From assembly GCA_008632985.1 (NCBI GenBank), contig QPGO01000315.1, forward strand, positions 1 through 64,000: a stretch of 64,000 nucleotides of DNA, given 5' to 3'. Both the position numbers and the translations under genes were made by a program. Of the stretch, positions 10,394 through 49,800 are shown piece by piece. How positions within the stretch are numbered: the first letter of the stretch is position 1; every line of letters begins with the position of its first letter. The notes beneath the pieces are model-generated. The model searched no databases and was not told the origin of the DNA. It worked only from the letters and a program-made list of their open reading frames with translations. Source of the stretch: Psammoneis japonica (taxonomy: Eukaryota).

Positions 10394-10849
10394 CGGTTTC
10401 TTTTGTAAAAATTCGACAAACAAATGAACGACAAACATTGTGAGTCTAATTGGTCAAAATGTGTTTGTCAATGTGTCGCTTTCCGACCCCTTCCAATGCA
10501 AATGAAAGACAAACATCGGCCGGCAGCAGTTTGAATTGCTTGATGCATCATTGTGCATGAATGACAACACAAATTTTTGAATCTTTTTGTGTTTGTTCGT
10601 GTCATGTGCTCAAGACATGACGAACATTTACATTGGTGTAAATGATTGCATGCATCATAAATGTCATTTCGGCTGGCGGGCGGTTTGTTTGTCCATTTTG
10701 TTTGTCTCTCGAGTTGTGGCAGCGATTCGATTTTGGTGCCACAGCGGCATCGACAAAGACAAACAAATGAACACTTCACAACCCAAATGACTGACAAGAC
10801 TCAAAATGTTTGTCGTTTGTCGTTTGTCAAAAATTTGCAAAAGAAACCG
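10394..10849. mobile_element. MITE-like element with ~55 bp imperfect terminal inverted repeats
   Basis: CGGTTTCTTTTGTAAAAATT...GAGTCT at 10394-10447 is the reverse complement of AGACTC...AAATTTGCAAAAGAAACCG at 10797-10849; no clear TSD. Confidence 0.65.
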
Positions 10850-10941
10850 TTTCGCGTTTGCCGCGTGCGCAACTTTCCTCGCTCGAACTGGAACATCGAA
10901 CGTCAAACACAGTGAACAGTTCCAAGTTGCGCGACCCGAAA

Positions 10942-11907: not shown

Positions 11908-11928
11908 ACCCGAAAGACGGCAAAATGC

Positions 11929-12345
11929 ATGCCCACGATGACGGGCTCCAACTCTCCACTAACTCTGAAGCAAGCTCGCTGTCTTTTGCAGTTGGATGGA
12001 GAGGCAATGCCACTGAAAAAGACTCAAATCCAACAAGCTTTTCTTCGAGCTGCGCAAATGTGCCACCCCGACCGTCGCCACCATCGCGACGCGACGCCTT
12101 GCTCTGAGCGCTTTCGACAAGCCCAAGAAGCGAAAGAGCTTCTTCTTTCTCAGTGTTGTGGTGGCAAAGGACAGAATGTACATGTCCGTTGTCAAAGCAG
12201 TGGTGGTGGTGGTTTCGCACAAGGATTTCCAACTCGGAAATTGAGAATTCTGACGCTGAAGCAGAACCTCATTCTCCGGGGGCTCGTTTTAACAACCATT
12301 GCATTTGGCACATTGCACGAAGAATGGAGTCGAAAGAAAGTTTGA
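11929..12345 (+). pseudogene. Small J-domain (DnaJ-type) protein with C-terminal hydrophobic segment, TpA-mutated
   Basis: IQQAFLRAAQMCHPD...ERFRQAQEAKELL J-domain signature with HPD; Cys/His at positions where Tyr is typical (C-HPD); no Tyr in the ORF. Confidence 0.7.
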
Positions 12346-13051
12346 CACTCATGGCATTGTTTGGTTCCATGCAATGCCTCAGACTCTGACTGAAAGAGCC
12401 ACACACTCTCCCACTCGGGTGACCAAGAACTCGTTTGCGATCTTTGTCCATGATGAAAGTGACAGCAGTCACACTTCCATCGTGGAACAATTGATGGAAA
12501 ACCCACCGCTTTGTGAGGCCTCTGGGAAGGCCCCTGCCGTGCCAGCATCAATGAGGCACTGCAATGACCCAGAACCCAGATCCTGCTGAACGAGACACCA
12601 GGAAATGGATCAATCCCTCCAAACCGCTCAATTCTTCCTTGCTCATTCAAGACAGAGACTGGGTCATTCTTCGTTGTGTTTGAGGAGATTGACATTGCAG
12701 TGGAGACCTGCTCTCTTGAGAGACTGCTAGAGCCACTGCTGGCACTCTAGAGTGGTCAGACCGGACCACAATTCCAACCCCCCGACTGTTGTGCCGTGTG
12801 CACCCGGATGTGGGATTGGATTTTGAATCTCGAGCTCCATTGCAAACAGTGTCGTTGACAGTTCACATCGTTCGTTGCCGTTGCTCTGTTGTCACACTTT
12901 GTCCATTGCTTGGAACTGACAGTGATGCAAATCAAACGGTTGCGCCTGTCGACAGAGGTTTCTCAACGGCAACCCACCACGCGCCGACGACGCGACCATG
13001 TTGGATTTGTGCGCCGAATCGGTGTTTGATCTATCTCCAAAAGACGAAAAC

Positions 13052-13900
13052 ATGGGTTTCTTTTCAAAATTCGCAAGCAGCATTCACAAGACGATACAAT
13101 CCCTTGTCTCCAATGGAGGGAGTGCTCATGAAGACAAAGGAATGGCTGCGAATGCCTCAAGTGCTGCAAGCGGGCGTGCCATCAATCAGAGTGATCCACA
13201 CCGCGACGACATGACACCCAATGACACCTCGACCGACTTCAATCATGATGGTTCCAATGATGTCAGTGCAAGACCAGAAATTCCGCAACAGGCATCTCCA
13301 CCTTCGCCTGCCGGGACACTGTGGCCTCCCTCGCCTGGGGACCACTCATTGCCTTCAAGCCAGGACTGCTCATTTCCTGCGGTGGCAAGTGACAAGCGGG
13401 TGCCTCCCTCACCACAGACATCTCCATCCACCTGCCGGGACTCCGTGGCCTCCCTCACCTGGGGACTGCTCATTGCCTTCAAGCAAGGACTGTTCATTGC
13501 CTGCAATGGCAAGCGACAAGCGGGTTCCTCCCTTGCCACAGGTTTCTCCGCGTCCGCCTGCCAGGACTCCATGGCCTCCCTCGCCAGGGGACTGCACGGC
13601 AAGCAACCAACCCTCAACACAGGAATCTCCGCCTGCGCCTGCGCCTTGGGACTGTGGATGCTCGGCAAGCAACCACTTTGGACCTCCCTCGCCACAACTT
13701 TCTCCGCCTTCGCCCTCCAGCATTTCATGCGGCAGAGAAATGAGGGCATCAGCATTCTCGCCACCGGCATCTCCACCTTCGATCGTCAGATGCGGGGAAA
13801 GAAAAAGATGTGTTGATGATCTCAGACTTGGCGAGCACGAGACATCTCAAGACGACCCCGATGATGACATCTACGAGCTAGAAAGTGGGAGTGAGTGTTC
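13052..13900 (+). pseudogene. Frameshifted Pro/Ser-rich gene relic with ~125 bp internal tandem repeat
   Basis: ATG at 13052; repeat unit WPPSPGD(H/C)SLPSS..D.S.PA.ASDKRVPP seen ~2.3 times (periods 124 and 126 bp), changing frame. Confidence 0.5.
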
Positions 13901-13966
13901 TCGGAGAGACTGCAGCACAAGCTGCCGAATCGAAAAATTTGCGACATCACAAAATTTGCGACAAAT

Positions 13967-14722
13967 GGAGTGGCGCACTTTCCAAAAGTGCGGTGCGCAG
14001 CACTCGTCTACATGCGGACAAACAGTGCTAGACTCTGCGCACCGAACACAACAAGATTTCACTTCATTACGACAACAGCACGGGAAGTCTGTCATGTCGG
14101 GTGTGTCGACGTCATTGCGCTTCTTGCGTATAAAAAATACATCAATCCACTAACATTGCGCGTGCGAATTGGATGGGATACAGGATCTTGCAAATCTGGT
14201 GAAAAAATCGTCCCCCCGTGCTTCACCGTGTTAAAAACCCCGTGCCAATCCTCCACAATGAATGAAAATCCAACTTTTCGTCAAAATCTGTTGTCGCGTG
14301 CTCACTTCAGTGCTTCATCAATGCGATCGACCGAGAAAACACAAAATACACCCCAAAAAAAGTGAAAAACAACAGTCCCACCGCGGCCAAAACCTCTACG
14401 TGATTTCAGCACCAAGTTGTACGTGCCAAAAACCCTTCGTCACCAATGGCTCAACCAGCTCCCAAAACAACTCGATCATTGTCATTTGACATTGATATCT
14501 CATTTCTTATCATATCAGTTGTTGTCTCGGTGCATCATAACCTCCCAGTCCGCTGTCGTTGTTGTGTGCGTCCATTGCCGATGTCGCGGCGTCGTTGCCG
14601 TGATGTTTGTGTGTGAAGTGAATTCAAATAAACATCTCTACGAATTTTGTAGTACATTTTTACGTACGTATATTTTGTGTAGATCAGGTATGCGCACCGA
14701 ATTTTTGAAAGTACGCCACTCC
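13967..14722. mobile_element. MITE-like element with ~45 bp imperfect TIRs (GGAGTGGCG...CGCCACTCC)
   Basis: 13964-14012 AATGGAGTGGCGCACTTTCCAAAAGTGCGGTGCGCA...TCTACA matches the reverse complement of 14678-14725; both ends flanked by AT. Confidence 0.75.
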
Positions 14723-21589: not shown

Positions 21590-24500
21590 TTTGAAACCTC
21601 CACACCATCGCTGGCGCTGGCGCTGTGGTAAACAGCAATGGACATGCCTGTTTGTTTGCTCAAATGATGAGCCCAGAGTGACCCATAAGGACAGCAAGAG
21701 AAATTTTCCTTCCAATCCAGTGAGAGAAGTGTCAGGGTTGGAACCTCTGTGTGACACCCAAAGCCCAAGAGCCAGTGGCAATGCTCTTGGCCGTTGGTGT
21801 CCAACTAGAATTCAGTTGTCAGAGGAGGAAAAGGTTGAGTGTTGCAGGAAGCAGCAAGGCAGAGAGAGTGTGATTTGTGCGAAAGGACCCTGCACAACCC
21901 ACACGAGCTCAGAATTGCGCCAGCAAAATGCAGGGACGACACTTTTGCCCACACAATGATGGCAAGTGCAGCTCACAGAGAGGCAGTTCTTGCAGCACCA
22001 AAGAGGAGTGGCAGCAGTTTTTGACACCATGCCTTGAACATGCGCAGCCATTGAACACGGTCTGCTGAAAATTGCTTTTGTGAAGATGCGCGAGTCGCAA
22101 ATTCTGCACCAAAGACAGAGGGATTCAAGTGTCTTGATTCAGAAATTTGAAAGAGTTGTTTGGGCATGCTGTCTTTGTCAGCTGAAGTGGAGCCATTCCA
22201 GTGCTGTGAAGTGTGCAAGGTTCCACACAAAATCAGCACACAGGTGGTTTTCATCAACGATGAAGGTCAACTGGCTGTCATTCTCCAGTGTGCACCTTTC
22301 AAAAAGGAGGTCACAACTCAAGTCTGGTGTGCCTGCAGTGTCACCCATCAGCTCAACCCTGACATCCACAACCCACCATTCACCAAGAAGAGCGTGATTT
22401 AGCACCACTTGAAAGCTGCCTCCTCCAAGATCTCTGGCTTCCAGGGCAGGTGCTTGGTTGTTTGCATTGCCAACCATGACAATGTGACATGCTCCCTGAT
22501 GGAGAAACACAAAAACACACGGCTGCTGGGTCTGGAAGCACTGGGTTTTGCGTTTGATTGTGTGTTGGACGTGGTGTTAGATTCTGAGTCAGAGGAGATG
22601 CAGGGGGAAGAGTTGGAGTCTGATTTGGAGGGGCCGTCGGAGGGGAGATCTGCATCAGAAATGGTGCTGGAGCTGTTGGAGAAAGTTCAGCAGGAGGTGT
22701 TGGAGGATGCATTGGGTTTCATTTTGGATTGTGCATTGAACAGGGCATCAGATTCTGAGCGCAAGAGGAGATGTGGGGGGGAGGGGTTGGATTCTGAGTC
22801 AGAGGGACTGTCAGAGGGGAGGTCATCTTCATCGGAAATGGCATTGGAAGACTGGTTGCTGATGTTGATGTGTTGGTGAAGGTGTCTGGGGCACAGATTG
22901 CAGCTCTGTTGACAGTGGTGTGACACCTTCTTGCATTTCTAAGTCTGTGTTGTTGTTTGGAGGGGGTGGAGGGGATGAGTCATTGCTGCCAACTGGCAGT
23001 GGAACCATGACAACTGCCACTGCTGCATTCACAATCACCACAAAAACAGCAGCGCCAATCACACAGAGCCCTCAAATGTCCTTTCTACTTGCCCCAGTTT
23101 CTTTGGCTGCAGATGCAATTGCCAATGGCAACCTTGTCTGTTCTTGTCATGGCCGGTTGACACTGGTCACAAGTTGAGCACTCACCATGACACAGCTGCC
23201 CATGGGCTGGGGATGACAAGGCAGTCATCCATTTTCTGACTCAGGAGGTGATGTGGAACCATCATTGCCATTTCTGTGAACTGCTTTTCCAGGTTGTTGA
23301 CATGTGGGAGGAGGAATGAAACCACAATTGTGGCCACTGACTGCTGCTGCTTCTTCTCAAGAGTGTCAAAGAGATGATGTGGAAACCTCTTTGCTGTCCA
23401 GTGGGACAGGAAATGCATTGTCTTGCCTGAGCACTTGCCAGGAAGATGACCTTTGAGCCTCTGATTCTAGAACTTGTCATTGCAGTGCTTCCTGGTGTTT
23501 CTTCATTGGGATGTTTCCAGGGAACTGGGTGGGGCAAGTTTTCTGACTCATCATCACCCACCACACCAGTTCTTGCACTTGACATGGGAAAGAAGGTGCG
23601 AGTTGCAACTTCCTCAGAGCCAGGACATCAATGCAATGTGCATTTCCCATTGGAAGCACTGCAGGCTCCAAACTGACTGACACCTGATCCTGCACTCAAT
23701 GTGCTCTTCTTCACTTTGTCCATTGCAGCTTCCTGAGGTGATGCACCAATTGATCATTCACCATTGCAACAAATGGCATCAACTGCACTGTCAATGTTGC
23801 TGTCATGACAAGAAAGGATGGAGTTCTTCAATGCAGCCTTGGACATGTCTTGAAAGAGATCCATGAGCTGGAAATGCTCTGAGCTTGATGATGATGACAT
23901 GACAAAGGTTTGGAAAGAAGCCACAGTGTTTTGTCTCTGACACTGAAAAAACAGCCATTGCCATGTGCAGTGCTGTCAACATCATCACTGTCCATCATCT
24001 GTCATTGGCTTGTGACTCAAATCTGTGTGCTTTCAGCTGCACCAGCTGAAGTGCATTGCAAACTCTGCCCTGGTTGATCATTCTGAGTGATCACACTCAG
24101 TTGGCTGCAGAGGGGGGCAACAAGAGGTGCACACAGAGGGAAGGCCTTGCTTCATGTGGGGTTGGCTGCTGTCAATCATTTGCCTGTTGCCAGCCAGCAG
24201 CCAGCAGCTGGGGGAAAGTGCTCACTTTGTCCGCAGCCCACCACTCTCAGGGAAGCACATCACAGAGCACACTCCTGCAACAGCAAAGTGCGGGGCAATG
24301 TGGTTTTGTCATTGAATGAGCAACAAGGAGATTTCATTTCAACAACTTGCACAACATCAAGAGAGCTCCTCTGTGCTGTGAAGAAACTTGCATCTCATGC
24401 TCACCTGCTTTCCAGCCAAAGCACACTCAAAAAACAGCCTTGAAATTGTGCACAAAAGTGACAATGATGTGCAGCACATGTGCAAGAACACCCTCTTCCA

Positions 24501-27400
24501 AAAAGCCAAGCAAAGAGCTTCAATCAGACCAACGCTCTCAAAGGTTTTGCGTGCAGAGTGACAAGAGTCACACACACCACATGAACATTTTTGAATTTGA
24601 CATGAGCTGCACCACCAACGCATGTGTGAACACAGATCAGCCCCTGTGCTGTGCACTTGTGGCGCATCTGATCAGCTCTTGCCAGAGTGTGCTGAGATGA
24701 TGACATCAGCCAAGTCACACATGCCCCATGCACAGTGCCCACATGCACACACACACCGCCTGTGCCCCCTTGTGCCCCAAGCTCAGCAATGTTGGTCAAG
24801 CTTTGAAAAAACTGACATGCCATCTCAACACAGTGGCCAACTTGGGAACAAATGCTCCCAATGGCTTTGGGGCCAGAAGACCCCAGGTGTCAGCAACACA
24901 GTGCAGCTGCACTGTGATGGAGCACAGGAGGAGCAGTTATCAGAGTGAGGTTTGGGTTGCTCTTTTGCAAATGAGGTTGATTGGATGGCAGCTTGGGCAG
25001 CAACAACAGCTGAACTTTTCTTGTTGTGATGGAGGTCCACATGAGCCCATCCAAGCATGACGCTTGACCCCAAGCTCACAACCTGCACAATGACTTGGGT
25101 TGTGAGACAGAGCTGGCACAGTCCTTTGACTGGAGAACAGTGCAGATGGTCTTTTGACAAAAAGGCTGGAAACCCAAAGTGCAGTCAAAGGAGTTGCAGT
25201 TGCTGATGCTCTGTCAGTTGAGTTGCAAAAGGTTTTGAAAAGATGGCAAGAGGTGCCTGGACAGTCTGTGTGTGAAGCATCAGCAAGCAAATCTGGTGGT
25301 GGGTCAAGAACACAGGGCTGTTGTGTGCACATGCTGTCAAGCACTCACATGGGAGAGCTCCAGCTTTGGTGAAAAAATCTGTGACTCTTGCAGCCACAAA
25401 CATTGAGGCACAGTCTGTTCCCTTTGTGCTCTCCTCTCTTCTCTCCCCATGCCTTCAAAAATCAATTTCAAGACAATGGGTCATCCTCTGTTTCAGTTTT
25501 CAGAAAGTGGGCATTCCATGGCCTGCTTCAAAAGTCTGAAATGTTCCCACATGTGTCTTGCACACCTCACCATCTCAAAGCTCCAGAGCACACAGCAAAA
25601 ACAGCACAGCAATGATGTTTCCTGCTTGCAGCTGAATTCATTGAAGGTCCACTTTTTTGTTAAAAAGCATTGCAGCACATGGTGGCTCTACAAAAATCAA
25701 ATTCAAGATCACAATTCATTGTCTGCTCCAATTTTCAGAAATTGTTCATTCCGCGGCCTGCTGCAGGAAGTCCAAAATGTCCCCACATGTGTCTCACACA
25801 ACACTTCACCACCTCAAAGCTCCAGATCACACAGCAAAAGCAGCGCAGCAAAGTTGAAAACAACAAAATGAAGTAGAAGGAGACTGCCAAGGCAGTTCAG
25901 ACATGAAAGATTGGAGCAGCAAGGTGGACAAAGTGTGTTCCCAAATTTGATTGAGAGAGTCATGAGATCCTTTAAAAAGAGATCAGCATGGAAAGGACTC
26001 TGGCTGCAAGTGAGAAAGTTGCTGACAAAATTGAGCAATGTCAGCAGATCAAGAGAGTGCTTGCTGACAGCAAAGAGTGCTGCAGAGGCATGTTTGAGTT
26101 GTGGTCAAAAGCAAAAGGCTCAAGCAGCTGCAAACTTGATGCCCACAAAAATGAGCAAAACAGCCAAGACCTTCTTGCTCAGTTGAGAAAAGATTTTTTT
26201 GTCATCAGCCAGAGCTGTGCTGCTTCTTGCAACTTTCAGCAATGGCAGAAGGGGCAAGTGGGAGACTTTCAATTGCATCACAAGAGAGGAGATAGGTGGT
26301 GCCAGGTGACAAGTTTGTGCCCTGAGGAAGTGGCTGGCCAACATGGATTGACCCCATCTCAAAAGAAAAGGTTTGGCACAGCCGCAGGAGCTGAGACAAT
26401 CTGTGGCTTTTTTGTTGCATTGTGTGCATCAGGCACAATCTGCTCTGCTTTCTTGAAGCCTTGCTCAGCCTCAAAGGAGTTGCAGAATGAGCAGAAACTG
26501 GCAGGTCAGGTTCAAGTGGGATCTTCGGCTGAGTCTTGGCACAGCATCACCAGCATCTGATGTGTGTGTGTGTTGGGCCAAGAAACTGAGCACATTGATC
26601 TCTCAAAGTTTTCAACTCAACCCAGTCAGTGGTGGTGCATGAGGTGCATGGCAAGTGTCTTGGGGTTTGTCTCTTCTGATTTCTTGACACTTTCACATTT
26701 TTGACTCATTGCCCTCCTCTCTGAGCAAGTCTCTTGCTGCCAACATCTGCAAGAAACCACAGAGCAGCAGCACTGTCATCCCCAGCCTTGATGCGTTCAG
26801 CACAGTCATCATCAAAAGGAAAGTTCTCATTTAAGATGACCCACAACAGCTCTCTTTGGACAAGGTGGAGTGGCGGGGCTTCACCCGGCAGGTGCGCCGG
26901 CTCTGTTTTCACGCGGGGGGGGGGGGGGGGTGCGACAATGCTCTGCTCCAAAATGAGGGATGTCTTGTGTGCATCAGGAATGTTTTGAGCCACATGGAGT
27001 CAGCCACAGTTCTCTCTCTGCAGGGGCACCACTCTTGTGGGGCAGTAGGTTTTTGTTCCCTGCCTGGAGAGTGCTTGCTCAGAAGTTTCACTGCTGGAAT
27101 TGGAGCCATGGATCCCGGACAGCGGGCAAAGTGGTGGCTGGCGCAATGGAGTGGCGTGCCCCCCGCCTGCGCACAGGTGACAGCTGCCCTGATTGGCAGC
27201 AAGCTTCTCTCATCGTCACTCAAAGATGGTGTGATGGTGTTAATGCAAGGTGTTGGACATTGTAGTCTACAAAATAGAAGACCTCGGGAGCCGTCTTTTG
27301 CCGTCGTCGTCGTCATCGAATTTCTCCGATGTGTGATGCATGGGTCGCGGAATTTCCCCCCAAACGCAACGGCAGGCAGACTTTGTTCCGCCGGGACAAA
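21590..27400. repeat. TpA/CpG-depleted relic domain 2 (degenerate gene-family and repeat remnants)
   Basis: Near absence of TA; degraded tandem duplications at ~22543-22860 and 25457-25850; remnants of a TM plus Ser/Pro-stalk protein (22400-23600, -) and an ankyrin-like GTPLH motif (~27150, -). Confidence 0.85.
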
Positions 27401-30789: not shown

Positions 30790-32930
30790 TCTGTTGCGAC
30801 AGCGAATTCGAGATTGCAACAGCAGACAGCCAAAAACTTGATGCGTTGCAGGCGGTCCACATGAGGGTGTGATTCGAATGGACTCAGGTGTATGATGCAA
30901 CAACAGCAACAAAGGAGAGCAAGGTTCAGCCATGTGGGAGGTCGACGCATGGGTGCAAGACCAGCAAGAAGCAAACAGTCGTTATTTCCATCTCTTCCTT
31001 CATGAACAGTGGAGCATCTGGACTCCGCGGCAAGTGTTTGATGCTTGTTGCGTCAAGTGGCTTGCTGATGGCACATGTGAGTGGAGTGAACATGCAGATG
31101 AGCATGATGTCCAAAGTGCAAACTGCAGTCGTGCACACCCACAGGTGACTCTGTTGTTTCAGAACAAAAACAAGATGATTGCCTGCATTTTCTGCCATCT
31201 TGATCCGTTTCTTAAGCACTTTCAGAGCAGATGCCACAGCGGGGCTGCAGTGCAATTGGAAGACATGTCATGGGAACTTGGCTGTTGTTGCACGCAAATG
31301 AGCATGATCTGAAGAACCACAGTGGATTGTTGGGAGTCACCCATGGATGTCTTCTCCAAAAAGGCTCTTGGAGAGTCTGATTTTGCCCAGAAGTGACAAC
31401 TCAAAGAATTGCAAGAATCTTCAAATGGCAAGAAGAGAGCTTGCATAAATTCTTCTCCTCTTTGAGAAGAGCTTGTCAGACAAGTGCTCAAAGTGTGCCA
31501 CCAAAAGGGTCATGCAAAGCACTTGGAAGCCATTGAGACTTCATGGTTTGGTGCTCTCAACAAGATGGAGGTTGGCAAAGCAGCTGCTGCCACAACCAAG
31601 GAATGATTAAAAAACATCAAACTGCACCCTGTGTTTCTGAATGGACAGCTTGTGTTCATGGGCAATGTGCCAGTCATGGACATTTGGCACAGCAATGGTG
31701 AGAGGAGGATTTGGATGTGATGTTGACTGTGATGATGACCATTTGCATGACAGGGCAACAACTGTCTGCAAGAAATTTGGCAGAGGGCTGCTTTCACTGG
31801 TGTCTCATGAGGCCAACTTGCCTCAAGTTTTCTTGCTGGCTAACATCTCTGAAGTCCAGCAGGGCAGTGGCATCCTGGCATGCAATGCAAATGAGCCTGC
31901 TGAAAGTGAGCGCGCTGATCAGAGATCATGAGTTCAATTGCACTGGGCACAAGATGTGTTTGAGCACTGGTTTGTCATTTGGAGTGAATGAAAACAAGCC
32001 ATCACAAACAAATTGGATGAATGCTGGAGTCTTTCATTTTTTGCCTGAGCACCCTCAAGCCTGGCATTGTTGAGGAACTCAATGATGGCCAAGGATTGCA
32101 TGGTGTGAAGCTCCACATGTTGTGGAGCACCAAGCTGAGAAGACTCTGGAAGAGGTTGTGGAGCCAGCACCAGGCAAAGCTTCCAGTGATGCCAAGAGTG
32201 ACAGCAGTGGGTCTGGGCAACATGGCGACCCCCAAAGCCAGTGAGATTCACTGCAGTGGCAAGTTTGAGGTCAACAAGGTTTCTTTTGACTTGCTGGAGC
32301 ACTTGTGCTCTCTGCTGTGTGGGAGACAAGATTGCTGCAAAGCTGCACAGACTTGCAGACAAGCAAAATGAGAGTGACCATCATTGAATGGTGAAAAGCA
32401 GCATCTGGCTGCTCTGTTGAAGATGACATTTTGTGATGCATCATGTCGTCATCGAGAAAGAGACCCCCCAAGCAGATCTTGCCTTGGCTTGATCTTCATG
32501 CGGGGTGTGGGTTGCATGTTTGTGTTGAGTTTTTTTGTCATTCACAGACACCACAATCAAGGAAGAACCCCAAGTTGATTGCCTTGGCTTGATCCCCCCC
32601 ACTGGGTTTGGGTCACTTGCATTGTGCTGGTGCCTTCTTTGTGTTTTGTTCACAGGCACTGCCAGACCTCTGGGGCACACCACACAGTGTGTGGCTCCGA
32701 TGCTGCACAAACTTTTCACCCACAAGCACCTTGTTGCAATGAAGCAAGCCAAAAGCATGCAGCAGGCAAGAAGAAGGCTCCAAAGAAAGAGGAAGTTTGG
32801 AGTCCCAGAGCCCGCCAAGATTGTCCTGCAAAACTTCCCCTCAAGAATGCAGGCACTTGGTTTGGCACAAACCCGCTGACTGTGTCACACCACCCCGCGG
32901 TGGATGCATCTTCATTGTCTCCCTTCAACT
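30790..32930. repeat. TpA/CpG-depleted relic domain 3 (unidentified degenerate coding element)
   Basis: TA nearly absent, CA/TG excess; Cys/His-rich broken ORFs on + strand. Confidence 0.8.
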
Positions 32931-32980
32931 CTAGTTTAGCTGCCACTCTAGAGCCCCAGCTCGTAGAGCACAGCAGAGAC

Positions 32981-32984
<4 letters not shown>

Positions 32985-33034
<50 letters not shown>
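32985..33034. repeat. (AG)25 microsatellite
   Basis: Perfect AG dinucleotide run of 50 bp. Confidence 0.98.
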
Positions 33035-36999: not shown

Positions 37000-39272
37000 G
37001 TCAATGATGATTTCAGTTGAGTGATAGGAGAGTAGCAAGTTACTGCAGGGCCCTAGCTAGTCTACTAGATGGATTGAATGAGCTACGGTATCCCTGCCCG
37101 GCCCATGCATGCTGTGATGAGTGATGTGAGAGGTGAGAGAGTGTGAGTTCATTTTGGGTGGGAGCCTGACCGCTGATCGGTGATGTCGGCGTTATCCTGA
37201 TAATTTTGAACACACTCTTGCATGTGCCGGCACGCAATGAACGACTTTCCGCCCCAGCGACGACGAAGTCAACTTCTTCATGGGGTGCTGTGACAAGCAG
37301 TCAGACAGAGGTGGGTGTTCGAGCTGTGAAGAGCAGCCCCGTCTTCAACAAGAAAACTCAAGAGCATCCGCCTGTGTGTCATCCGTTTTCCCGCCAACTG
37401 TGATCAAAGGACCGCCGCAGCAGCCAGAGCACATGCCAGAGGAGCTCTGCTGCACGGAAATTTCTGCGCACAGTCATGGTGAACAGCACCCCCCCCAAAG
37501 CACTCAATTTGATGACAACAAAGTCCACAATCTTGGGCATTTGGGCCCCACCCTCACTCACAGAGATGCCCGCACTTGCCTGAATGACTTGTGCTCAGAT
37601 GGGCAACAGACACCAGCACGAAGATGAGAGAAAACTTGAGCTTCATTGGCTGCATGAACCCAGTTATTCAGTTTTGTGTGGGGGAAGTCTTGACATGTTT
37701 TTGTGAGTTGTGTGAGAGAGAAAAAAGCCTGAAGCAAGCCTGGCTGCAGCAGATGGAGTCAGAGCCCACCTGCTTTTGCCTGCGACGCCAATGAGGCCAC
37801 CTCACACAAGGGCAAAAGTCTTGCAAGCCATTGCCGCTCTCTTGTTTGTGTTCCAACAAGGAGAGCCCCAGCCACCATGTGGTGCAAAAATGCAAGAACC
37901 CCACTCAACAATGTGCTCTTCCCTTGTTTGATGAAGCACCGTGTGAGAATTTTCAAGTGGTTGTGCAGAAGGGTGCTGCCAGCAAGCGCACGAAACATCC
38001 TCCTTTTTCTGCCCAAATCTAAATGACGAGTGTGGCTGGCTTGTGTGCAGAGCAGTGGGTGGGCATTTTGGGCCAAATGTGTGCCAAAATCTGGTGTGCA
38101 AAATGGTCCATTGGACTGGCAGGTCAAACAAAAAAGCCAACGACAGAAGTGTGCACACTCCCGTCAAGCCACCAGAGGACTCAACAGGCCCTGCTGCCTC
38201 AACCAGCCCCACTTGCTGGCTGAAAGACACTTACAGAGGTCATGCACAAACACACACGTGCGTGACTGCTGCACACAACAGCAGAAACACAACGTCAAAT
38301 GGCCAGAAATCCAAGCTGGAGTGGTGCTGTGCAGACCAGTTGACAGAGGTGCTTGCAATGCTGTGTGTCTTTTTCATTGGCTCCAGCACATTTGAGCTGT
38401 CCACCATTTTCCTGCACTTGGCTGTGCAGCTCCAACTGAAAATTCCATTTTTTGAAAAACAAGTGATGGCTTGTTTGCAGTTTGGAAATTTCATGCAACT
38501 GTCTTGATGCAAAAAGTGGCCAACACCAAAGTGGAGCTCCCATCTTCATCAGCATTTCCGTCATGCCATCTGACTCCACTGTTGCCAAACACATGAAACA
38601 CTTTGTTTTTCACTCTCTTCCCGCACTTCTTCATGCAAAATCAAGCACAACAAATGCCACCACCTTTTTCATGGTGAAGCCAAGGTTGCACTGTCAAGTG
38701 TTCCGGTCAATCACACATTTTGCATCCTTGCAACTGTCTGCACTGTGTTTGGAGTTCTTCACCACCCACTGAGAAATGTTCCAATTGTTTGTCCAGTTTG
38801 TCATTGTCAAGCCCAAACTCTGCACAACTCTTGCTGGCATCCTCCCCATTGTGCTTTCTCTGCTTTTCATGAAGACATGCATTGGTGGCTGTGCGTGCAC
38901 ATCAAATGAAGTCAGGAGTTTGTCGCAGATCTCAATCTTCTCTTCATGCAGCCCAACCCCCCCCCCATTTCTCTCTTCAAAGTTCACAGTTGTTTTAACC
39001 CCCCCCCCCAGAAATTTGAGCACCAGATCAACAGAGACAAGAAGACAGCAGAGCAATGAGCTGAGACCAGAGCAAGTGTGGACATTCAAGCAAACTCCTG
39101 AGCTCTTTCCGAGTGCCCCCCCCCCCAGCCAAGTGCCAAGACACAAGGGCCAACAAGCGCCCATGTTGGCACACATGTCAACAACACAGCAAGAAAAAAA
39201 GGTGGCTTGTGAGCATGTGAGTTTTGCACTGCAACAAACAAAGAACTCCACCAACTGCGGTGTGCTTGCTGT

Positions 39273-39704
39273 TGCAGCATGCCTCGCTGCTGGACAACAC
39301 GGCGAGACCGTGCACAAGCCTCTTGTGCATGGCAACGCAGTGTTGTTAACACGCACCTGGGAAGCACGACCACAGGAGGGCGTGGCTCTGGGTCTCAGGC
39401 AATTCCAGAAGGATGCTAAGAGAGCGTCCGTGTGAAGCACACTGGCCCGTCATCTGGCCCACGATGGCAGCGTGATTCCACACTGTGACATCACTCGTGC
39501 ATGGCGCGTGATGGCTTGATTCGCACGATCCACAATGCGAACGCACGATCGATTTAATGCGATCCAAATGCGAACGAATGGGGATTTGGCAAGATTCCCT
39601 GTTCGCACGATCCCATTTTCTCTACTCTAAACTAGCTCACAATTTTCACAACGACAAAGTCGTAACACATCTTCTTTTTCAGCGCCTGGCACATGCATGG
39701 GGCA
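39273..39704 (+). repeat. 5' LTR
   Basis: 11 mismatches to the 3' LTR over 432 bp by manual alignment. Confidence 0.95.
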
Positions 39705-39798
39705 CAGCAACATTGCTCCCGCATGTTGTGCGAGGTGACGAAATCTACAGAAACGAAACTACGAAATGTTGGCAGGACCGACAAATCTTAAAACAACC

Positions 39799-42700
39799 AT
39801 GAAGAAGCGGATCAAGCCGCTGATTCCGTTCGCACGGCCGGAGAAGAAAGAGCTGCAGCAGGGCGAGTGCCAGACGTTCAAGCTGCGTAACAACCCCACT
39901 GATCCGGACAGTCCAATGCACGAGATGGGCATTCCGCACCTTTCTGCGGCTACATGCGAGACACTCCTGATCTTTCTGCGCAACGTGGATCGCGTGCACG
40001 AAGGACAAAACATCACGACCGGGCCAGCAAAATTTGCCCTTGTGCATGACCCACTGCAGGGCGATGCTCTGACGTCATTTGACAATGCCGCTGACAAGCA
40101 GGCATCCCAAACCAACGCTGCGTGCGCAGCATGCGTCGCGAAGCTAAAGGAAAGTGTCTTCCCACATGGGGCGGCACTGTTGCAGAAGCGTCATCTGCGG
40201 CGCTTCATGCGCAAGCCCGCAGAGGTTTCTGCTCGTGACTGTGTCACGAGGGCTGTTGAAATTAACGGCTGTGTCTCTCAGTTTCCACCCATGACGGAGG
40301 ATGGAAAAACACCGGCACCATTGCCTGATGATGAACTGTGCGATGTGTTCGAGTGCGGTGTGCCGAGTGCATGGCAGAAGTTCATGACGCTACAGAATTT
40401 TGACCCGTTGGCGCATGCTGTCGCCGAATTTGTGCAGTTCTGCGAGCGCACCGAGCAGGTCGAGCTTGCCGAAGGTAACCGCGACCAACACACTGGGGTC
40501 TCACGTAAGCGGGGACGTAGAACGGACAGTTCTGAGTCGTTGATCACGACCCAACCGAACACCCACGTGAAACGTGTCAAGACTGGACATTCCAGTGACG
40601 GAGGCAGCAAGCCTGACACAAAACCTCGGAATGAGGAAGATGTCAACACTCTCATCGGATCAAAGGTCGAGGAGTGCTTTGCCAACGCTCAGAAAAAGTG
40701 CAAGGCCCGCGAGGAGGAGCTTGATCACTTCCGCGACCTCAACTCAAGTGATTCCGAAGACTCGGACACTTGCCGACACGATGCAGGTAATTTTAATGCA
40801 TTGGATGAATGTGCAAATGAACAACTGAATTGCCATCGTACACGTGTTGCAGGCCAATCCCGCAAACAAGTTAAAAAGACTCATCTTGCTCCAATCTTGT
40901 TCACAGCCATGAATGCTGAACATGGCAAGGGCAAGACTCAAACCATCAAGGCACCACCAGACAGTGGCGCCAGCAGCACTCTGCTTGACAGTTGACACTG
41001 CAAACGTCTGCGAAGCCATTCAACGGCTGAGACAAACTGGGCTGCGGCAGCAGGCTCGTTTGGTGCATCTGACGACTGCACCGTTAAATTTCGGTCACCA
41101 GAATTGTCCAAAACTGCAGAACTTGAGCATGCCGTCCACGCACACAACGGAAAGTTGGGCAAGTGCGACATGATTGTTGGACGTGACATTCTGGAGACAC
41201 AAGGCATTGACGTTGTCTTCTCCAAACAGATGGTGGAGTGGCCATCAGTCAATGGAGAGGTGCCAATGAGGCACGCAAATGCTGCGGTGGAAACCTCCTT
41301 CTATCTTCAAGATCCAGAAGCCTTGTCTTCGGAAACCGACCGGATTTCGCATGTTTTAGACGCCAAGCACGCGCCGGCCTGCCTCGAGGACATGGCGCGA
41401 GGGGCAATGGGACTTTCTGTGGTTCAACAAAACGACCTTTTGGCACTGTTGAAACGCCATGAGTCCTCATTTGATGGGACATTGGGAGAATGGAAGGGAG
41501 AACCCTGCCACATCCAACTCAAGGAGGGTGTGGAACCACACCACGCTCATCCGTGTGAAGTGCCTCGTGCGTGCGAAGCTGTGCCACGCAAAGAAGTAGA
41601 ACGCCTGGCACGCATCGGTGTTCTCAAACGCGTCAACCGATCCCAATGGGCAGCTCCATCATTTGTCACACCGAAGAAAGATTTAACGGTGCGCTTTGTT
41701 GATGATTTCAGAGAGCTGAACAAACGGATCAAGCGATTGCCTCATCCGATTCCTCACATCCAAGATGTGCCACTTGAGCTCGAAGGCTTTGTGTGGGCTA
41801 CATCGCTGGATTTAAACATGGGCTGTCATCACATCCAATTGGACACTGATGGCAAGAAGCTCTGCACGCTCATCTTCCCGTGGGGCAAGTGTGAGATGCA
41901 GGCATTGCCCATGGGATCATGCAATTCGCCAGACATTTTCCAAGAACGCATGTCAGGCTCATTTGAAGATCTGTCGTTCGTTCGAACGTACTTGGATGAC
42001 CTTCTCGTTGTGACGAAAGGCACCTGTGAAGATCACCTCAACAAACTTGAAGAAGTTTTGTTGAGGGTCCAGAAAGCAGGACTAAAAGTTAACGCAACTA
42101 AATCTCATTTCTGTCAAACCCAATTAGAACACTTGGGTTGTCTGGTCAACAGAGATGGAGTGCGACCAACACCCAATGAAGTTGACGCCATTGAGCGAAT
42201 CGCGACCCCAACCAACAAACGCGACCTGCGTTCATTCATTGGCATGGTGAACTGCTGCCGTGACACGTGGATCAGACATTCTGAAGTCTTGGCTCCACTG
42301 ACACGACTCGCAAGCGAGACTGTCAAGTGGAAGTGGACGTCCGTTGAAGACGAGGCGTTCGAAACCGTTAAACGGGTGATGTCCGATGATGTTTTGTCAT
42401 CACATCCTGATTTTAACAAACCCTTTGAGATGCACACCGATGCCTCTAAACATCAATTGGGAGCAGTCATGTCCCAAGATGACAAACCCATCGCCTTTTA
42501 CAGCAGAAAGCTTGACAGTGCGCAATTAAATTGTGCAACAACGGAGAGAGAATTGCTCGCCATTGTGGAGACGTTGAAAGAATTTCGAACGATTCTCCTT
42601 GGTCATCGTGTGATCATGCACACTGATCATAAAAATCTCACGTGCAAAGCACTCAACACCGAGCGCGTCATGCGCTGGCGGTCAATGTGCGAAGAATGCG

Positions 42701-44030
42701 GTCCCGAATTACGCTGTGTTGAGGGTGCCCATGACCCAGTCGCTGACGCTCTTAGTCGCCGTCGACTGGCACCCAGCTTGCCTTCCGAGGCCAATCCGGA
42801 TGTAAAAGACACTCCATCGAGTCGTCCTTTGCATGAAGCCTTTAATGCAGACGCTCAAGATGAGCCATCTCTGCCCATTGGCTTCAAGCGCATTCAAAAA
42901 GCACAACAAAAGGACAAGCACCTGCTCTCAAGAGCTGAGGACTCGCCCGACTGCTCCATTCGCGCGCATCATGGGGGAGGGTCATCACGACAGTTAATCT
43001 GTCATAAGGACAAAATCGCAGCACCACAGTCATTGCAGGTTCCGCCAACTGAATGGTGCCACGAGACACTGTGTCATCCAGGTGAGACACGCACGGAAAC
43101 ATCTGTTGCCCAGCACTTCTGTTGGCCTGGTGTGAGGTCTACGGTGCATTCTACGTGTGTCAAGTGCGATCGATGCCAGAAGACAAAACGCTGAACGCAG
43201 CATTGTGGGAAGCCACCAGAAAAGGTCGCAGAGATAATTCCATGGGAGACTCTGTGCGTGGACATGACAGGGCCACATAAAATTCAAAGACGCGGAAAGG
43301 ACACTTTGCAATTGTGGGCAGTCACAATGATTGACCCAGCAACCGGGTGGTTCGAGATTGAAGAAGTGTCTGCGAAACGCGCAGACGTCGCAGCAAACGT
43401 CGTGGAACAAACGTGGCTGTGCAGATGTCCGTGGCCAACCCAGGTAGTTTATGACCGTGGGACAGAATTTGTGGCAGAATTTAGCCAGATGATTAAAAAT
43501 GACTGTGGGATTTTGAAGAAACCCACAAGCAAACGGAATCCACAGGCGAGTGCCACAGTGGAACGTGCACACCAGACACTTGGCAACATGGTGCGTTCCT
43601 TTTCAGTGCAGGATGTGGAACTGGACGAAGATGACCCATGGAGTGGCATCCTCTCCGCAGTGGCCTTCGCTGTCAGAGCTGCGGTGCACACGACCACGCG
43701 TGCAAGTCCCGTGCAATTGGTCTTCGGACGCGATGCGGTTTTGTCCATTGCCCATCATGCCAAGTGGAAGTGCATAGAAACCAGAAAGCAGAAGCTTGTC
43801 CACTTAAACAACAAGCGTGAAAATCAGAAATGCAAGGAGTGTCAATGTGCCGCAGGGCAATTGGCACTTGTCAAACAGGAACAATCCTCTAAATGCGGTT
43901 CTGACAGCTGTGCAGGACCCGCCAGAGTTGTCCGTGCACATGACAACGGCACGTTGCGCATCCAGAACGGAGCGCTGACAGATGCGCATAATCTACGGCA
44001 GATTGCACCCTGTCACCAGCAAGACATTCT
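39799..44030 (+). pseudogene. gag-pol polyprotein of the Gypsy element, two in-frame TGA stops and pervasive Tyr->Cys/His
   Basis: Protease DSGAS, RT DFRELNK / LPMG / YLDD, RNase H TDAS and ERELLAIV, integrase H-H-CxxC, CVDMTGP, YDRG, VERAH; TGA at 40993 and 43192. Confidence 0.93.
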
Positions 44031-44061
44031 GTCACTTGACGGCCCTGATCATGGGGGAGTG

Positions 44062-44493
44062 TGCAGCATGCCTCGCTGCTGGACAACACGGCGAGACCGT
44101 GCACAAGCCTCTTGTGCGTGGCAACGCAGTGTTGTTAACACGCACCTGGGAAGCACGACCACAGGAGGGCGTGGCTCTGGGTCTCAGGCAATTCCAGAAG
44201 GATGCTAAGAGAGCGTCCGTGTGAAGCACACTAGCCCGTCGTCTGGCCCACGATGGTAGCGTGATTCCACACGATGACATCACTCGTGCATGGCGCGTGA
44301 TGGCTTGATTCGCACGATCCACAATGCGAACGCACGATCGATTTGATGCGATCCAAATGCGAACGAACAGGGATTTGGCAAGATTCCCTGTTCGCACGAT
44401 CCCATTTTCTCTACTCTAAACTAGCTCATAATTTTCACAACGACAAAGTCGCAACACATCTTCTTTTTCAGCGCCTGGCACATGCATGGGGCA
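44062..44493 (+). repeat. 3' LTR
   Basis: Direct repeat of 39273-39704, offset 4789. Confidence 0.95.
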
Positions 44494-46299
44494 CTGTGTC
44501 ACCTTCCAGGTGCGGCATTGAGTTTCTCTGACAATTGCCAAGGCCACAAGCTTTCCCAAGGTTGCGTCACATCACTTCATTGAAAATGCATGCACTCTTC
44601 AATTGCAATGGCCAAAAAACAACGTGCCATGACTGCAAGCTGACCAAGACCCCAAGAAGCCAATGAAGAGTGTTGCAAGTTCATCGGCATTGCACAATGA
44701 AGGTTTCTGCCAAAGCTTGCCAAGTGGGAGCAAATGAAAGGCTGTCCATGATGAAAGCACTGCAGCAGTGCAAACACCTTGAAAAAGGCTTGAATGAGCT
44801 GCCTCTGGGATGCTCCCACAAGGAGAAAATGACAAGCTCTTCTCCAGCCCAAAACTTTTCATTTGTGGGTGTTCGCACGCTGGGGGAGTTCATCCCTGCA
44901 TTTGTCTTGACTGAAGTCACCATGGCATTTGAACAACTGCACTTGCAAGTGTTTGTTTTGAGCACAACAATTGCTCTTGTTGTTTGCACCTGATTGTGAG
45001 ATTGAGCCATGACAATGACTGCAGTCACCGACCTTTCTCAAAAATGCAGCTTGCCGTCCATGCAAACTTTCATGTGTGGCAGAGCTTTGGTGCGCGAGGA
45101 TCATGAAACAAGTGAGAGAGTTGGCAGATGGACCACCTCTGTCACAGACTTGTGGATTGCTGTTTTTACAATGGCGAAGCATGGTGAAATCGAGGGAAAA
45201 TCATGCAAATCACAAGCCACTCAGCCAAATTTGAGCCAAAAAAGCAGCACGCAGCAGCACCCTCAAGTGGGGTCATCCTCGCGTTTGTCCCAAAATTGCC
45301 ACAATGTTGAGTGAGGCTTTTTGTGGCATTTGTTCATGCACACAAAAGCCACTCTTGTTGTTGTCCATGTGCCTGCTCACCGATCATGCACAAAAACAAC
45401 AAGAGCGTGAGACACCACAGTTGATGATGGCCGAAAACAGCCTTTGTGACATTTCTCAACAATGCGGCTTGCTTTTTCAAGCACACAAGAGCTTTGGTGC
45501 ACAAGAAACACAAAACAATTGAGATTTGATAGATGGACAACCTCTGTCACAGACTTGTGGCTTGCTGCTCACCATGGCGAGGCACAGCGAAGCTCAGAAA
45601 CAACAAAAAAAATTCAGCGCAGATCGGGGGGAGAGGCCAGCAGGAGACACAGTGGTTTGCACCCCCCCCCCCCCCGTGCAAGCAGGCTGCAAGCACCTTC
45701 TCAAGCTGGAGCAACCTCAATCTTTTTTCCTTGGTGAGTCAAGAGCAGCCCACACGCCCACCCTTTGGGGCTCTGCTCTGGCCAGAGCTCCAGCTGCTGC
45801 CTGCATGTTTCCCGACGACTTGCGAGCTCTGGCTTGACTGAGCTCTGCTCCTCATGGCTTGCACCACAATCAACCAGAGTGCTCAGCCAGGAGCATCAGC
45901 AACTAGAGGAGAGAAGAGTCAGAGAGTGACAGAGGGCAATGGTCTTGCGATTGCACGAGCTGCTCAGCCGAACTCGAGCTAGTCTAACAAAGGTGGCGTT
46001 GAGAACAAAAAAGACATTCGTCGCGGCCGTTGACATTCTTGTTAACGCGCGCGGGACGAGCTCGAATTTTTCGTTCAACGGAAATCAAGCAACAGAAACC
46101 TCTCAATCTCCTCAAATCATTCGCTTGAAGTGAAAACCTAAAAGTTGTTGAAAGTTGAAAGATAACTTGAGTGTTGGTATTGTTACTTTTAGCACTGGCT
46201 TTTGCTTTTTGGGCAGAAGGTAATTTTACTTACTGCTCTGACAGATAGGTCGCCCTAAACCGGGAATCGTTCGACGACAGATAAAAAGGGAATGCAGCG

Positions 46300-47742: not shown

Positions 47743-48149
47743 TAGTTCGTTTATTGTGCTGAGGCTTGCACTTTCGCTGCAGTGTTACAATTAGGTAGAT
47801 CTATCGAGAGAGCTCTATCGGCGACATGGCGAATCCACGCTAAATCTTAACATTAATTAAACCCATCTTTGTTCGAGGTTGATCTGCGATCGTTTCTTTG
47901 CATCCATGACGAAAGGATCAATCAAAATGCTGCGCCAGGACTCGATTCTAGTTACAGCAAGGAATTGGACAATGCTCCAGATGCAGAGCGACTTGCGAAT
48001 GTCCGATTTGCTCGAACTGTTGATCACTCGCGTAATTTGATGAGAGGTGAATGCAAACGTCCAACTTCTGAATAACACTGTCTTCAGAATCTGGCAGTTC
48101 TCCTTCATAACTGATCAAACCTTCTCCCTCAATTCGCAGGACAGATGTT

Positions 48150-49800
48150 GTTGAACTGTTCCAACATCAAAACTTCAATAAAACCCTCGAAAAATCAATG
48201 GCATCACCCACCACGAGATGTTCTCTGCCTTTGACATCAAGGCTAAAGAACGAGACGTGTCTCCTTGGAAGCATGCCCAGCATTAGACTTGCGCAGGGCA
48301 CCTGGGGGGCCTGGTGGCTCCCCCACTTCAAAGTTGTTGGTGCAAGCTGTAGCAAGCTGGCTGGTTCCACTGAACTGGTGGACAATGCCAAGGAACTGGT
48401 GCTGATGACTGCAGATGGCTTTCCTTCACTGTGGGGAACACAACAGACACAGCAGAATTGACATTCAAGGAACCAGTGCATTCGCAGGATCCAACTGAGG
48501 ATGGACATCAAATGCATCTTCAACTTGAGATGCAACACACAGTGGCATTGCAGTTGCTGAGACGCGGGAGCCGGGTCCAATTTGGACTCTGCAAACCCCA
48601 CCGGAACTTAAAAGAGACATCACAAATGCAGCAGAAAGCATGGGAGCTGTCTCACATCCTGCATGGTCACTGGAGCATGGAGCACCCTGATCTCATGATG
48701 TTGATTCTTCACCTGAGAGAGGTCAACCAGGCCCTTCTGGCAATGCACATGAGGTTGGCAATCTTGACAGGGGAGCTGGGGAGATTGTAAGATCATGCCA
48801 AAGGATGTTTGTCTTGGTGGTGCCAGATGAACAAGTCAGAAATGCGACCCTTGGATTGGTCTTGAGTGGCAGCAACAGTGGCACTCTGAGTGTTGGCATC
48901 TGCATCTCCCTCTGGAGCCAAAAATGATTGGCGGTTTTTCATCCAACACCCACAATGACCACACCAAGGAAGAATGCTTGGTTGCACCATTGGTGATTCA
49001 AGCATGAGATTCTCCATGTCTTGGAGGAATCTTGCAAGGATCCCTTTGAGTGCAAGCAGTCTGGTGTTGCAGGTGATTGCAACAATCGCCTCGGCCACCC
49101 GGGCCTCGTCCGCCTTGGTCTCCACATCCGCCGCATCCACCACCACCTTGGTCTTCCTTGAGAGGCCAAGAAGCACCCTTGGGATCATCTGACACATCAT
49201 CCCCGAGTGGATTGGGGGCTGCATCTCTGATCGGGACATCTCCTTGTGATGCTGAACGAACACTCATTTCGCAAAATCAAAGGTTTCGCTTCATGCCAAC
49301 TCAACAGACTCAACTCAAAGCAATGACAAGACACTTGGGCTCACAACCGCAGAAAGGAGCTGGATGACAGCACAAGCTGGGGTGACAATGATTGTCTAAA
49401 TGGCACAAATGCCTCGACAGCGTGCGGAGCTGTTGAAGTGATTCTGGTCCCCGAAAACGCACAAATCCTCAAGAAGTGAGAGAAGGAGAGAAGAGGGGCC
49501 CCAAAGGCCTCAAGAGCAAAAGTGTGGACCAAAAGACATGCCACTGGCATGTGTCCATGAGAAAACCGTAGAATGGATGTGACCAAATGAAAAGCCAGTC
49601 ATCCGAAAAACCACAACAAACCCAACAATGGCAGCAATCTCCAAAGAGAGTGAACCAAGAAAAGACACGCCACTGGCACATGTCCACGAGAAAACCGCAG
49701 AATGGATGTGACCAAATGAAAAGCCAGTCATCCGAAAAACCACAGCAAACCCAATGGCAGCAATCTCCAAAGAGCAAACCATGTGCTGTGCTGCACTCCC
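48150..49800. repeat. TpA-depleted domain 5; possible retroelement gag remnant on minus strand
   Basis: TA scarce; Gly/Arg-rich stretch followed by WCGHCGCW knuckle-like motif (48940-49150, -). Confidence 0.65.
49532..49774. repeat. Two-copy tandem duplication, period 129 bp
   Basis: AAAGACAYGCCACTGGCA...GCAGCAATCTCCAAAGAG at 49532-49647 and 49661-49774. Confidence 0.9.

Follow-up and report, generated by a model that had tools for sequence, protein, structure and literature searches.

A Gypsy element that encodes almost no tyrosine

Why would a retrotransposon encode almost no tyrosine? The question is raised by a Gypsy element at positions 39273–44493 of a 64,000-nt stretch of the genome of the diatom Psammoneis japonica (contig QPGO01000315.1, positions 1 to 64,000; hereafter, the window), which was analyzed over its whole length. 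The element is a canonical Ty3/Gypsy long terminal repeat (LTR) retrotransposon and is now a dead copy. Its changes run in one direction and in one dinucleotide context and strike both strands; the same signature is confined to particular domains of the window, continued to accumulate after the element had inserted and recurs in other Gypsy copies. The probable cause is a TpA-specific mutator that acts in place on this recent, dead Gypsy copy and on older, gene-free domains of the diatom genome.

The element frame contains 5 Tyr among 1,487 sense codons (0.34%), together with 3.96% Cys and 4.30% His. Sixty relatives (55–62% identity) contain 3.78% Tyr (range 2.95–4.48), 1.23% Cys and 2.47% His. 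An earlier note on this DNA, made from the letters alone, had counted 4 Tyr in about 1,400 codons; the scarcity was borne out, while the exact count was not. We defined conserved Tyr columns as the 32 alignment columns with Tyr in at least 60% of the 60 relatives. At these columns the element carries Cys 20 times, His 7 times, Tyr twice and Trp, Met and Ala once each, and the relatives, taken as a control, have on average 28.3 Tyr and 0.8 Cys plus His. Because Tyr codons are TAY (Y, pyrimidine), conversion of TpA to TpG or CpA yields Cys (TGY) or His (CAY). All of the Cys/His-for-Tyr motifs quoted in the earlier note were found by comparison with the intact public relative P0001, with the caveat that at MHTDAS the nearest relative also has His (Tyr is present there in 43 of the 60 relatives). 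The protease motif reads PPDSG, with codons CCA CCA, where relatives have LLDSG, as the note had pointed out. Under the genetic code, a change of TA to TG or CA cannot create a stop codon, and the open frame is therefore uninformative on function.

The anatomy of the element is that of Ty3/Gypsy (coordinates in Table 1). The LTRs, 432 nt each with the TG..CA ends typical of the class, are 97.46% identical over a 433-nt LTR–LTR match and differ at 11 places, and the 4-bp target-site duplication (TSD) CTGT is present on both sides. Two in-frame TGA codons break up the gag-pol frame (39739–44208), which terminates at a TAA. Along this frame lie, in the order expected of Ty3/Gypsy pol, the DSG protease motif, RVT_1, RT_RNaseH, Integrase_H2C2 and rve; the match to the integrase core is weak (Pfam rve, E 1.8e-6, 28.6 bits against a curated cut-off of 32.6). 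The middle part of the frame also matched RT_RNaseH_2, whereas no Pfam match was obtained for the gag-protease part, within which the alignment to P0001 starts at 40792. Overall, the element is 56% identical to P0001 across 1,086 residues. It lacks autonomous coding capacity, as shown by the two in-frame TGA codons, changes at 154 of 627 conserved columns and the loss of 30 of the 32 conserved Tyr. The TGA at 43192 occupies a column that is variable among relatives (T 22, S 11, R 6).

Direction, strand and context of the changes

The relatives' consensus at the 627 conserved columns was taken as the ancestral state. The 154 columns at which the element differs comprise 83 that require one transition, 29 that require a transversion and 42 that require more than one step. 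Among the 83 single transitions were 40 A>G and 27 T>C changes within TpA, 6 CpG transitions and 10 others, the last being A>G in ApA (3), GpA (2) and CpA (2), other T>C (2) and other C>T (1). By base, 76 were A>G or T>C, and the remaining 7 were C>T or G>A, 6 of those at CpG. TpA was thus the context of 27 of the 29 T>C changes and, with the relatives' consensus as reference, of 40 of the 47 A>G changes, an enrichment whose absence the earlier note had named as grounds for abandoning its proposal. The 67 conversions of TpA to TpG or CpA were opposed by none in reverse (no TG to TA or CA to TA), which agrees with the note's description of A-to-G changes after T, or T-to-C changes before A, and with its view that the direction is opposite to that of repeat-induced point mutation (RIP), since TpA is destroyed here.

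Both strands were struck, again as proposed: 40 A>G and 27 T>C changes were counted across all TpA changes (p 0.14). When only Tyr codons were considered, Cys outnumbered His 20 to 7 (binomial p 0.019), and pooling of the Tyr codons with those of two further loci described below (L001 and L002) gave 31 versus 18 (p 0.085). The strand bias is too weak for any inference. RNA editing of the ADAR type, which the note had argued against on account of the two strands, is disfavored by the changes on both strands and by the rarity of G after the target A.

Two general explanations were rejected. GC-biased gene conversion would neither single out TpA nor deplete CpG, and selection against UpA at the RNA level does not account for an element that is dead and in which conserved residues are changed.

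Depleted domains of the window

TpA and CpG observed/expected (o/e) ratios were mapped over the whole window in 500-bp steps. The genes have a TpA o/e of 0.53 and a CpG o/e of about 1.0, and the element has 0.23 and 0.91, respectively. All gene-free domains are depleted in TpA (o/e 0.03–0.23), and the older ones are depleted in CpG as well (Table 1); in the doubly depleted domains, TG and CA o/e are near 1.9. The signature is not specific to the element, in which the earlier note had placed it: TpA is scarcer still in its flanks and in four further domains, from which CpG has been lost as well. Domain edges are sharp to 100–300 bp, and the blocks of normal composition carry genes, namely those for a pyridoxal phosphate-dependent (PLP) decarboxylase, MLH1, GST, TTL, SNF2, CysRS and TYW1.

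A mass balance separated conversion from avoidance. The summed o/e of TA, CG, TG and CA is 3.72–3.92 in every domain type and 4.12 in the element, and the share of pyrimidine–purine (YpR) steps is 26% in the element and 23–24.5% in each of the other domain types. Because the YpR total stays constant while TA and CG fall to 0.03–0.2, TA and CG have been converted to TG and CA. TpA falls before CpG, as in the element and in the domain at 9000–14000 TpA is at 0.13–0.23 while CpG is still at 0.77–0.91; the TpA:CpG log-decay ratio calculated from composition reaches 6.7 in the element, compared to 4.8 at 9000–14000.

The TpA steps that survive in depleted DNA define a wider motif. YTAR (R, purine) dominates among them, with TTAA, CTAA and CTAG accounting for 93 of 180 survivors versus 17% of gene TpA, whereas RTAY is almost lost (9 of 180 versus 31% in genes) and ATAT is absent (0 of 180 versus 7%). 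Counted per strand, a pyrimidine lies 3' of the potential target A in 96 of 360 survivor targets versus 1,376 of 2,422 in genes (Fisher p 3e-27), and susceptibility by the base after the target A follows the order T > C > G > A. The preferred per-strand target is T-A-Y. At the 67 mutated sites of the element, the target A is followed by T in 27, C in 24, A in 12 and G in 4; Tyr codons inflate this tally (51 of 67 pyrimidine), which is supporting evidence only.

The coding content of the depleted domains was examined with Pfam. Among 100 open frames of 90–149 aa in these domains, none matched a family at E<=0.01. Of 61 listed frames of at least 150 aa, the 57 outside the element were scanned as well, and the sole matches from depleted domains were to DUF5898 and, weakly, to DnaJ. 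The DUF5898 open frame (8408–9250, minus strand) lies at the edge of the 9000–14000 domain, which also contains tandem repeats of 124–126 nt (13285–13592) and a 48-nt inverted repeat (10951/11849). Stop codons are few in the doubly depleted domains, and long open frames occur in all six frames.

Several smaller features of composition and repetition were also recorded. At the left edge of the domain that precedes the element, TpA depletion runs about 270 bp nearer to the GST gene than CpG depletion does (37201–37467). The gene blocks at 14000–21500, 27000–31000, 33000–37500 and 50000–64000 have TpA o/e of only 0.53–0.58, and the TTL gene block at 46000–48000 has 0.77. Direct repeats of 101 nt (80% identity, about 400 nt apart) are present in the right flank of the element (45081–45584), and a 118-nt tandem direct repeat (92% identity) is found at 49531–49774, in the depleted domain just upstream of the SNF2 gene.

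Action after insertion

Reverse transcription makes both LTRs alike at insertion. The 11 differences that now separate the LTRs of this copy include 5 of TA versus TG or CA, 2 of CG versus CA, 1 TG-versus-CA double and 1 unresolved double, and each LTR carries derived states, with both polarities represented. Expressed per site-copy, 5–7 of 20–22 TA sites, 3–5 of 66–68 CpG sites and at most 2 of about 690 other sites have changed. From the LTR pair, about a quarter to a third of TA site-copies have changed since insertion, compared to at most 0.3% of other site-copies, and the TA:CpG decay ratio is near 6.

The locus is also covered by a run from one public DNA sample (X1), the assembled contigs of which were compared with the window. 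In X1 the site is empty: a 738-nt contig at single-copy depth (59.7) joins 39268 cleanly to 44494. X1 and the window flanks differ at 53 of 11,222 letters (99.5% identical), and the insertion is hence younger than the split of two haplotypes about 0.5% apart. The insertion is recent, and a second isolate or haplotype of this species lacks it. Even so, a quarter or more of the LTR TA sites have changed, a rate at least 100 times that at other sites.

The depleted flank at 35745–39213 is reproduced by X1 contigs with 14 differences in 3,469 letters. In X1, single-copy depth was found for this flanking domain and high summed depth for the Gypsy family (43–340 times the flanks at seven places, which is a summed contig depth and not a copy number). 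The proposal that the mutator is aimed at repeat domains stands in part: confinement to domains and the sparing of genes were observed, while on induction by repetition the depth of the family and that of the equally depleted flank point in different directions.

Differences between X1 and the window were classified in 40 of 291 rows. The 23 gene rows contain 14 transversions, 3 TA-site and 2 CpG-site changes. The 10 rows from the left flank, where CpG o/e is 0.21, contain 6 CpG-site changes, 1 TA-site change and 1 transversion. In 7 element rows, X1 contigs are unanimous against the window copy, with 5 CpG decays, 1 TA site and 1 other; the TA-site row, at 42451, has CAT in the window copy and TAT in the X1 contigs.

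Recurrence in other Gypsy copies

Searches for other copies of this family gave best protein matches that were 61–64% identical, among the matches listed by E-value. A metagenome scan returned two loci only, L001 and L002, both of another Gypsy family; a scan of viral_contigs for further copies gave no match, and tblastn of 6 relatives against the window matched the element alone. Both metagenomic loci carry the signature. TA o/e is 0.01 in L001 (1–1269) and 0.10 in L002 (1–1506), CG o/e is 0.15 and 0.23, and Tyr accounts for 0 of 348 and 2 of 405 residues, respectively. Where relatives have the GYYH motif, the two Tyr are replaced by Cys and His in the window copy and by His and Cys in L001; the Tyr of YxDD is kept in the window copy, is Cys in L001 and is His in L002. 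L001 and L002 are 80% identical in DNA, with 117 differences in 586 nt, of which 22 are adjacent TG-versus-CA doubles. Such doubles are accounted for by a single self-complementary step in the ancestor, of which one strand was changed in one copy and the other strand, independently, in the other copy.

Six short fragments among the 240 relatives retrieved were also poor in Tyr (0–2.2%; P0216, P0193, P0218, P0149, P0207 and P0190); with L001 and L002, they represent two or three further families rich in Cys and His. Five of the six belong to one family (78–91% identical) and have Tyr, Cys or His at the same columns depending on the copy. These copy-specific patterns indicate conversion copy by copy, recurrent in at least three families. 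Along with the LTR differences and the empty site, they point to a process that acts on DNA in place.

Comparison with known systems

The earlier note knew of no described system of this kind. One exists in the chlorarachniophyte Bigelowiella natans, in which Mettrop et al. report TpA hypermutation of integrated nucleocytoplasmic large DNA virus (NCLDV) and virophage DNA (bioRxiv 10.64898/2026.01.13.699255, a 2026 preprint); full-text searches outside subscription journals found this one description of the signature and no report in diatoms. According to the preprint, mutation-accumulation lines yielded 231 mutations within two regions of integrated viral DNA, of which 230 were A>G or T>C, all on TpA, at a rate of about 6e-7 per site per generation, in some lines only, and about 1000 times the background; an ADAT2 homologue is the authors' candidate (bioRxiv 10.64898/2026.01.13.699255). 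Judged from sequence, the signature described here is the same as that of this de novo process. In both cases the changes are almost exclusively A>G or T>C and lie at TpA, which becomes TpG or CpA depending on the strand; they are confined to foreign or mobile DNA, while the remaining genome mutates normally there and genes are spared in the window map here; and the targeted region can be single copy. The preprint further describes, in the B. natans genome, TpA-poor clusters rich in CpA and TpG that are enriched in reverse-transcriptase and DDE domains. The cases differ in the host, a chlorarachniophyte (Rhizaria) there and a diatom here; in the events, measured de novo there and inferred from sequence here; and in degree, as the NCLDV region is mildly depleted (Rho 0.45) compared to o/e of 0.03–0.23, near saturation, here. 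CpG loss and the T-A-Y preference are found here; in a term search, the preprint text contained neither CpG nor a wider context nor diatoms.

As in RIP, context-specific transitions on two strands have ruined a chromosomal mobile element and left skewed dinucleotides in sharp domains. RIP changes C:G to T:A, mostly at CpA, creates TpA and requires duplicated DNA and a premeiotic stage. Unlike RIP, the process seen here is an A:T-to-G:C change that destroys TpA, with 67 changes in that direction and 0 in the direction of RIP.

Likewise, APOBEC3 and ADAR kill retroelement copies by deaminase-type, context-dependent hypermutation. Their targets are cDNA or RNA prior to integration, and the marks are left on one strand. 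The edited A of ADARs is preferentially preceded by U and followed by G, and these enzymes are not known outside animals. The U before A matches the present context; unlike in ADAR editing, both strands are changed here, G and A after the target are resistant, and the survivors are enriched in TAA and TAG. Decay of 5-methylcytosine explains the CpG-to-TpG/CpA half of the pattern and cannot produce the TpA loss, which is about 6 times faster per site.

Proposed mechanism and alternatives

The process that we favor may be described as follows. The element inserted recently into an older, gene-free and presumably silenced domain, in which TpA is probably converted to TpG or CpA (A:T to G:C) on chromosomal DNA in place and on either strand, with T-A-Y preferred per strand and adjoining genes spared. 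A slower CpG-to-TpG/CpA decay in the same domains is taken to be putative ordinary 5-methylcytosine deamination; together, TpA conversion and CpG decay would leave old domains with near-zero TA and CG and twice the usual TG and CA. Given the single-copy depth of the flank, the process may be directed by silencing chromatin or by the foreignness of the DNA and not by repetition. The chemistry would be DNA adenine deamination by an ADAT2/TadA-type enzyme, and the function may be genome defence. tRNA adenosine deaminases recognize a U33-A34 context, with U before the target A.

Several points weigh against an in-place mutator or narrow its scope. The loss of about 27% of TA sites since insertion cannot explain the loss of 30 of 32 conserved Tyr, and in X1, despite the high summed depth of the family, only 7 of the classified element rows differ unanimously from the window copy, 1 of them at a TA site. 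Much of the Tyr loss is thus likely to be older than this insertion. Most probably, the copy that gave rise to it was itself poor in Tyr and moved with the help of proteins supplied from elsewhere; an alternative is that a one-shot editing step did some of the damage before integration. The polarity of the 5 LTR TA-site differences was inferred from the interior of the element, and the X1–window comparison draws on 40 of the 291 difference rows. The search peptides that retrieved L001 and L002 carried Cys and His for Tyr and favored mutated copies. Within the window, an identity as mobile or foreign DNA is established for the Gypsy element only.

A first alternative, to which we assign a small probability, is that a deaminase edits the RNA or single-stranded cDNA of the element in each cycle, such that copies arrive already hypermutated and chromosomal DNA would not be the main target. 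Editing before integration would suit LTRs that are 97.5% alike despite the lost Tyr, and the excess of Tyr-to-Cys over Tyr-to-His changes; the copy-specific Cys/His/Tyr patterns found elsewhere fit per-integration events equally well. It is opposed by the striking of both strands overall and by the derived states of both polarities in both LTRs, which a single cDNA-editing window would not give. Moreover, depletion is stronger than in the element itself in flanks that are at single-copy depth and lack a recognizable retroelement origin; according to the preprint, integrated DNA of B. natans acquires this signature de novo; and the agreement between the TA:CpG ratios of about 6 obtained from the LTR pair and from composition counts against such editing.

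A second alternative, about as improbable, keeps the process in place and puts the lesion on thymine. The T of R-T-A would be oxidized to 5-hydroxymethyl- or 5-formyluracil by a TET/JBP-type enzyme and would then mispair with G or be repaired to C. TpA is self-complementary, such that T>C on one strand equals A>G on the other, and adenine-side and thymine-side chemistry would give the same outcome in sequence. Some protists do contain modified thymines. The strict requirement for T ahead of the target A, however, matches the context in which tRNA adenosine deaminases act, and it is an ADAT2 homologue that was put forward as the candidate in B. natans.

Error-prone patch repair by a Pol-eta-like polymerase with a WA (W, A or T) motif, triggered in methylated DNA by 5-methylcytosine deamination or mismatch repair, had been one of the candidates in the earlier note. 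TpA and CpG loss do share domains, in keeping with this idea. The fit is otherwise poor, and we consider patch repair very unlikely: ApA is spared (3 A>G changes versus 40 in TpA), contrary to a WA motif; single-step changes across all columns comprise 83 transitions versus 29 transversions; and in the element and at 9000–14000 TpA had already fallen to 0.13–0.23 with CpG at 0.77–0.91.

That no mutation occurred at all can be practically dismissed: modified bases can mislead some base callers, and an element natively poor in TA, whether adapted or foreign, would escape such a mutator, but an artefact of assembly or base calling is contradicted by X1, which lacks the insertion, is thus not the same haplotype data and reproduces the depleted flank, native TA poverty is contradicted by the 154 changed conserved columns (both Tyr of GYYH included) and the two in-frame stops, and the mass balance indicates conversion of YpR steps and not a different composition.

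Other features of the window

The coordinates of the element and of the depleted domains are collected in Table 1. Elsewhere in the window, a divergent pair of paralogous genes with Cyclin_D1_bind was found at 52729–54000 (minus strand) and 54483–55720 (plus strand); the paralogues share a near-identical stretch, ARSCLPQFNLEGLWVGK, ahead of an apparent intron. Positions 323–841 are 519 N and represent an assembly gap. The housekeeping genes of the window are diatom-like: for the cysteinyl-tRNA synthetase, the best matches with a named source were to Fragilaria crotonensis (55%) and Nitzschia sp. (51%), the best without one was 65% identical, and an exact counterpart was absent from the protein collection that was searched, which speaks against Bigelowiella as the source.

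Table 1. Parts of the Gypsy element and depleted domains of the window (domain values are o/e ratios)
Feature	Position	Strand	Evidence or composition
TSD CTGT, left copy	39269..39272	+	Boundary sequence; X1 empty-site contig joins 39268 to 44494, 4 shared letters
5' LTR, TG..CA, 432 nt	39273..39704	+	LTR–LTR match
gag-protease part, 418 codons, ends with TGA 40993–40995, protease motif PPDSG	39739..40992	+	
Reverse transcriptase, RNase H and integrase zinc finger, 732 codons, ends with TGA 43192–43194	40996..43191	+	Pfam RVT_1, RT_RNaseH, RT_RNaseH_2, Integrase_H2C2
Integrase core and C-terminal part, enters 3' LTR, ends with TAA	43195..44208	+	Pfam rve; tblastn to P0001 up to 44019
3' LTR, purine run GGGGGAG just before	44062..44493	+	
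TSD CTGT, right copy	44494..44497	+	Boundary sequence; X1 empty site
Older host domain left of insertion	37202..39272		TpA 0.03, CpG 0.21 over 37500–39272; TpA stops at 37201
Older host domain right of insertion	44494..45900		TpA 0.05, CpG 0.35 over 44494–46000
Doubly depleted domain	1000..9000		TpA 0.06, CpG 0.07, TG 1.88, CA 1.87
TpA-only depleted domain	9000..14000		TpA 0.13, CpG 0.77
Doubly depleted domain	22000..27000		TpA 0.04, CpG 0.13
Doubly depleted domain	31000..33000		TpA 0.06, CpG 0.16
Depleted domain	48000..49700		TpA 0.11, CpG 0.39

Implications

A broader proposal, about which we are doubtful, is that both diatoms and chlorarachniophytes defend their genomes with a DNA adenine deaminase that is guided by chromatin, derives from the ADAT2/TadA-like enzymes of the tRNA anticodon loop and prefers T-A-Y. 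Such a defence would rewrite mobile and foreign DNA that has been silenced, would be faster than 5-methylcytosine decay, would be an analogue of RIP with opposite chemistry across protists of the SAR group (Stramenopiles, Alveolata and Rhizaria) and may have shaped composition genome-wide, given a TpA o/e of 0.53 even in the genes of the window.

Compared to the main text of the preprint, the present locus adds a depletion close to saturation, clear targeting of LTR retrotransposons, a per-strand preference for T-A-Y by which the search for the enzyme is narrowed, and a pace roughly 6 times that at which CpG decays in the same domains. For annotation, a process that creates no stop codons leaves ruined elements and junk with long open frames in six frames, and homology searches miss them. 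If our reading is true, TpA-specific hypermutation, so far described in one chlorarachniophyte, would also work in diatoms, a far larger and ecologically dominant group, some members of which are genetically tractable.

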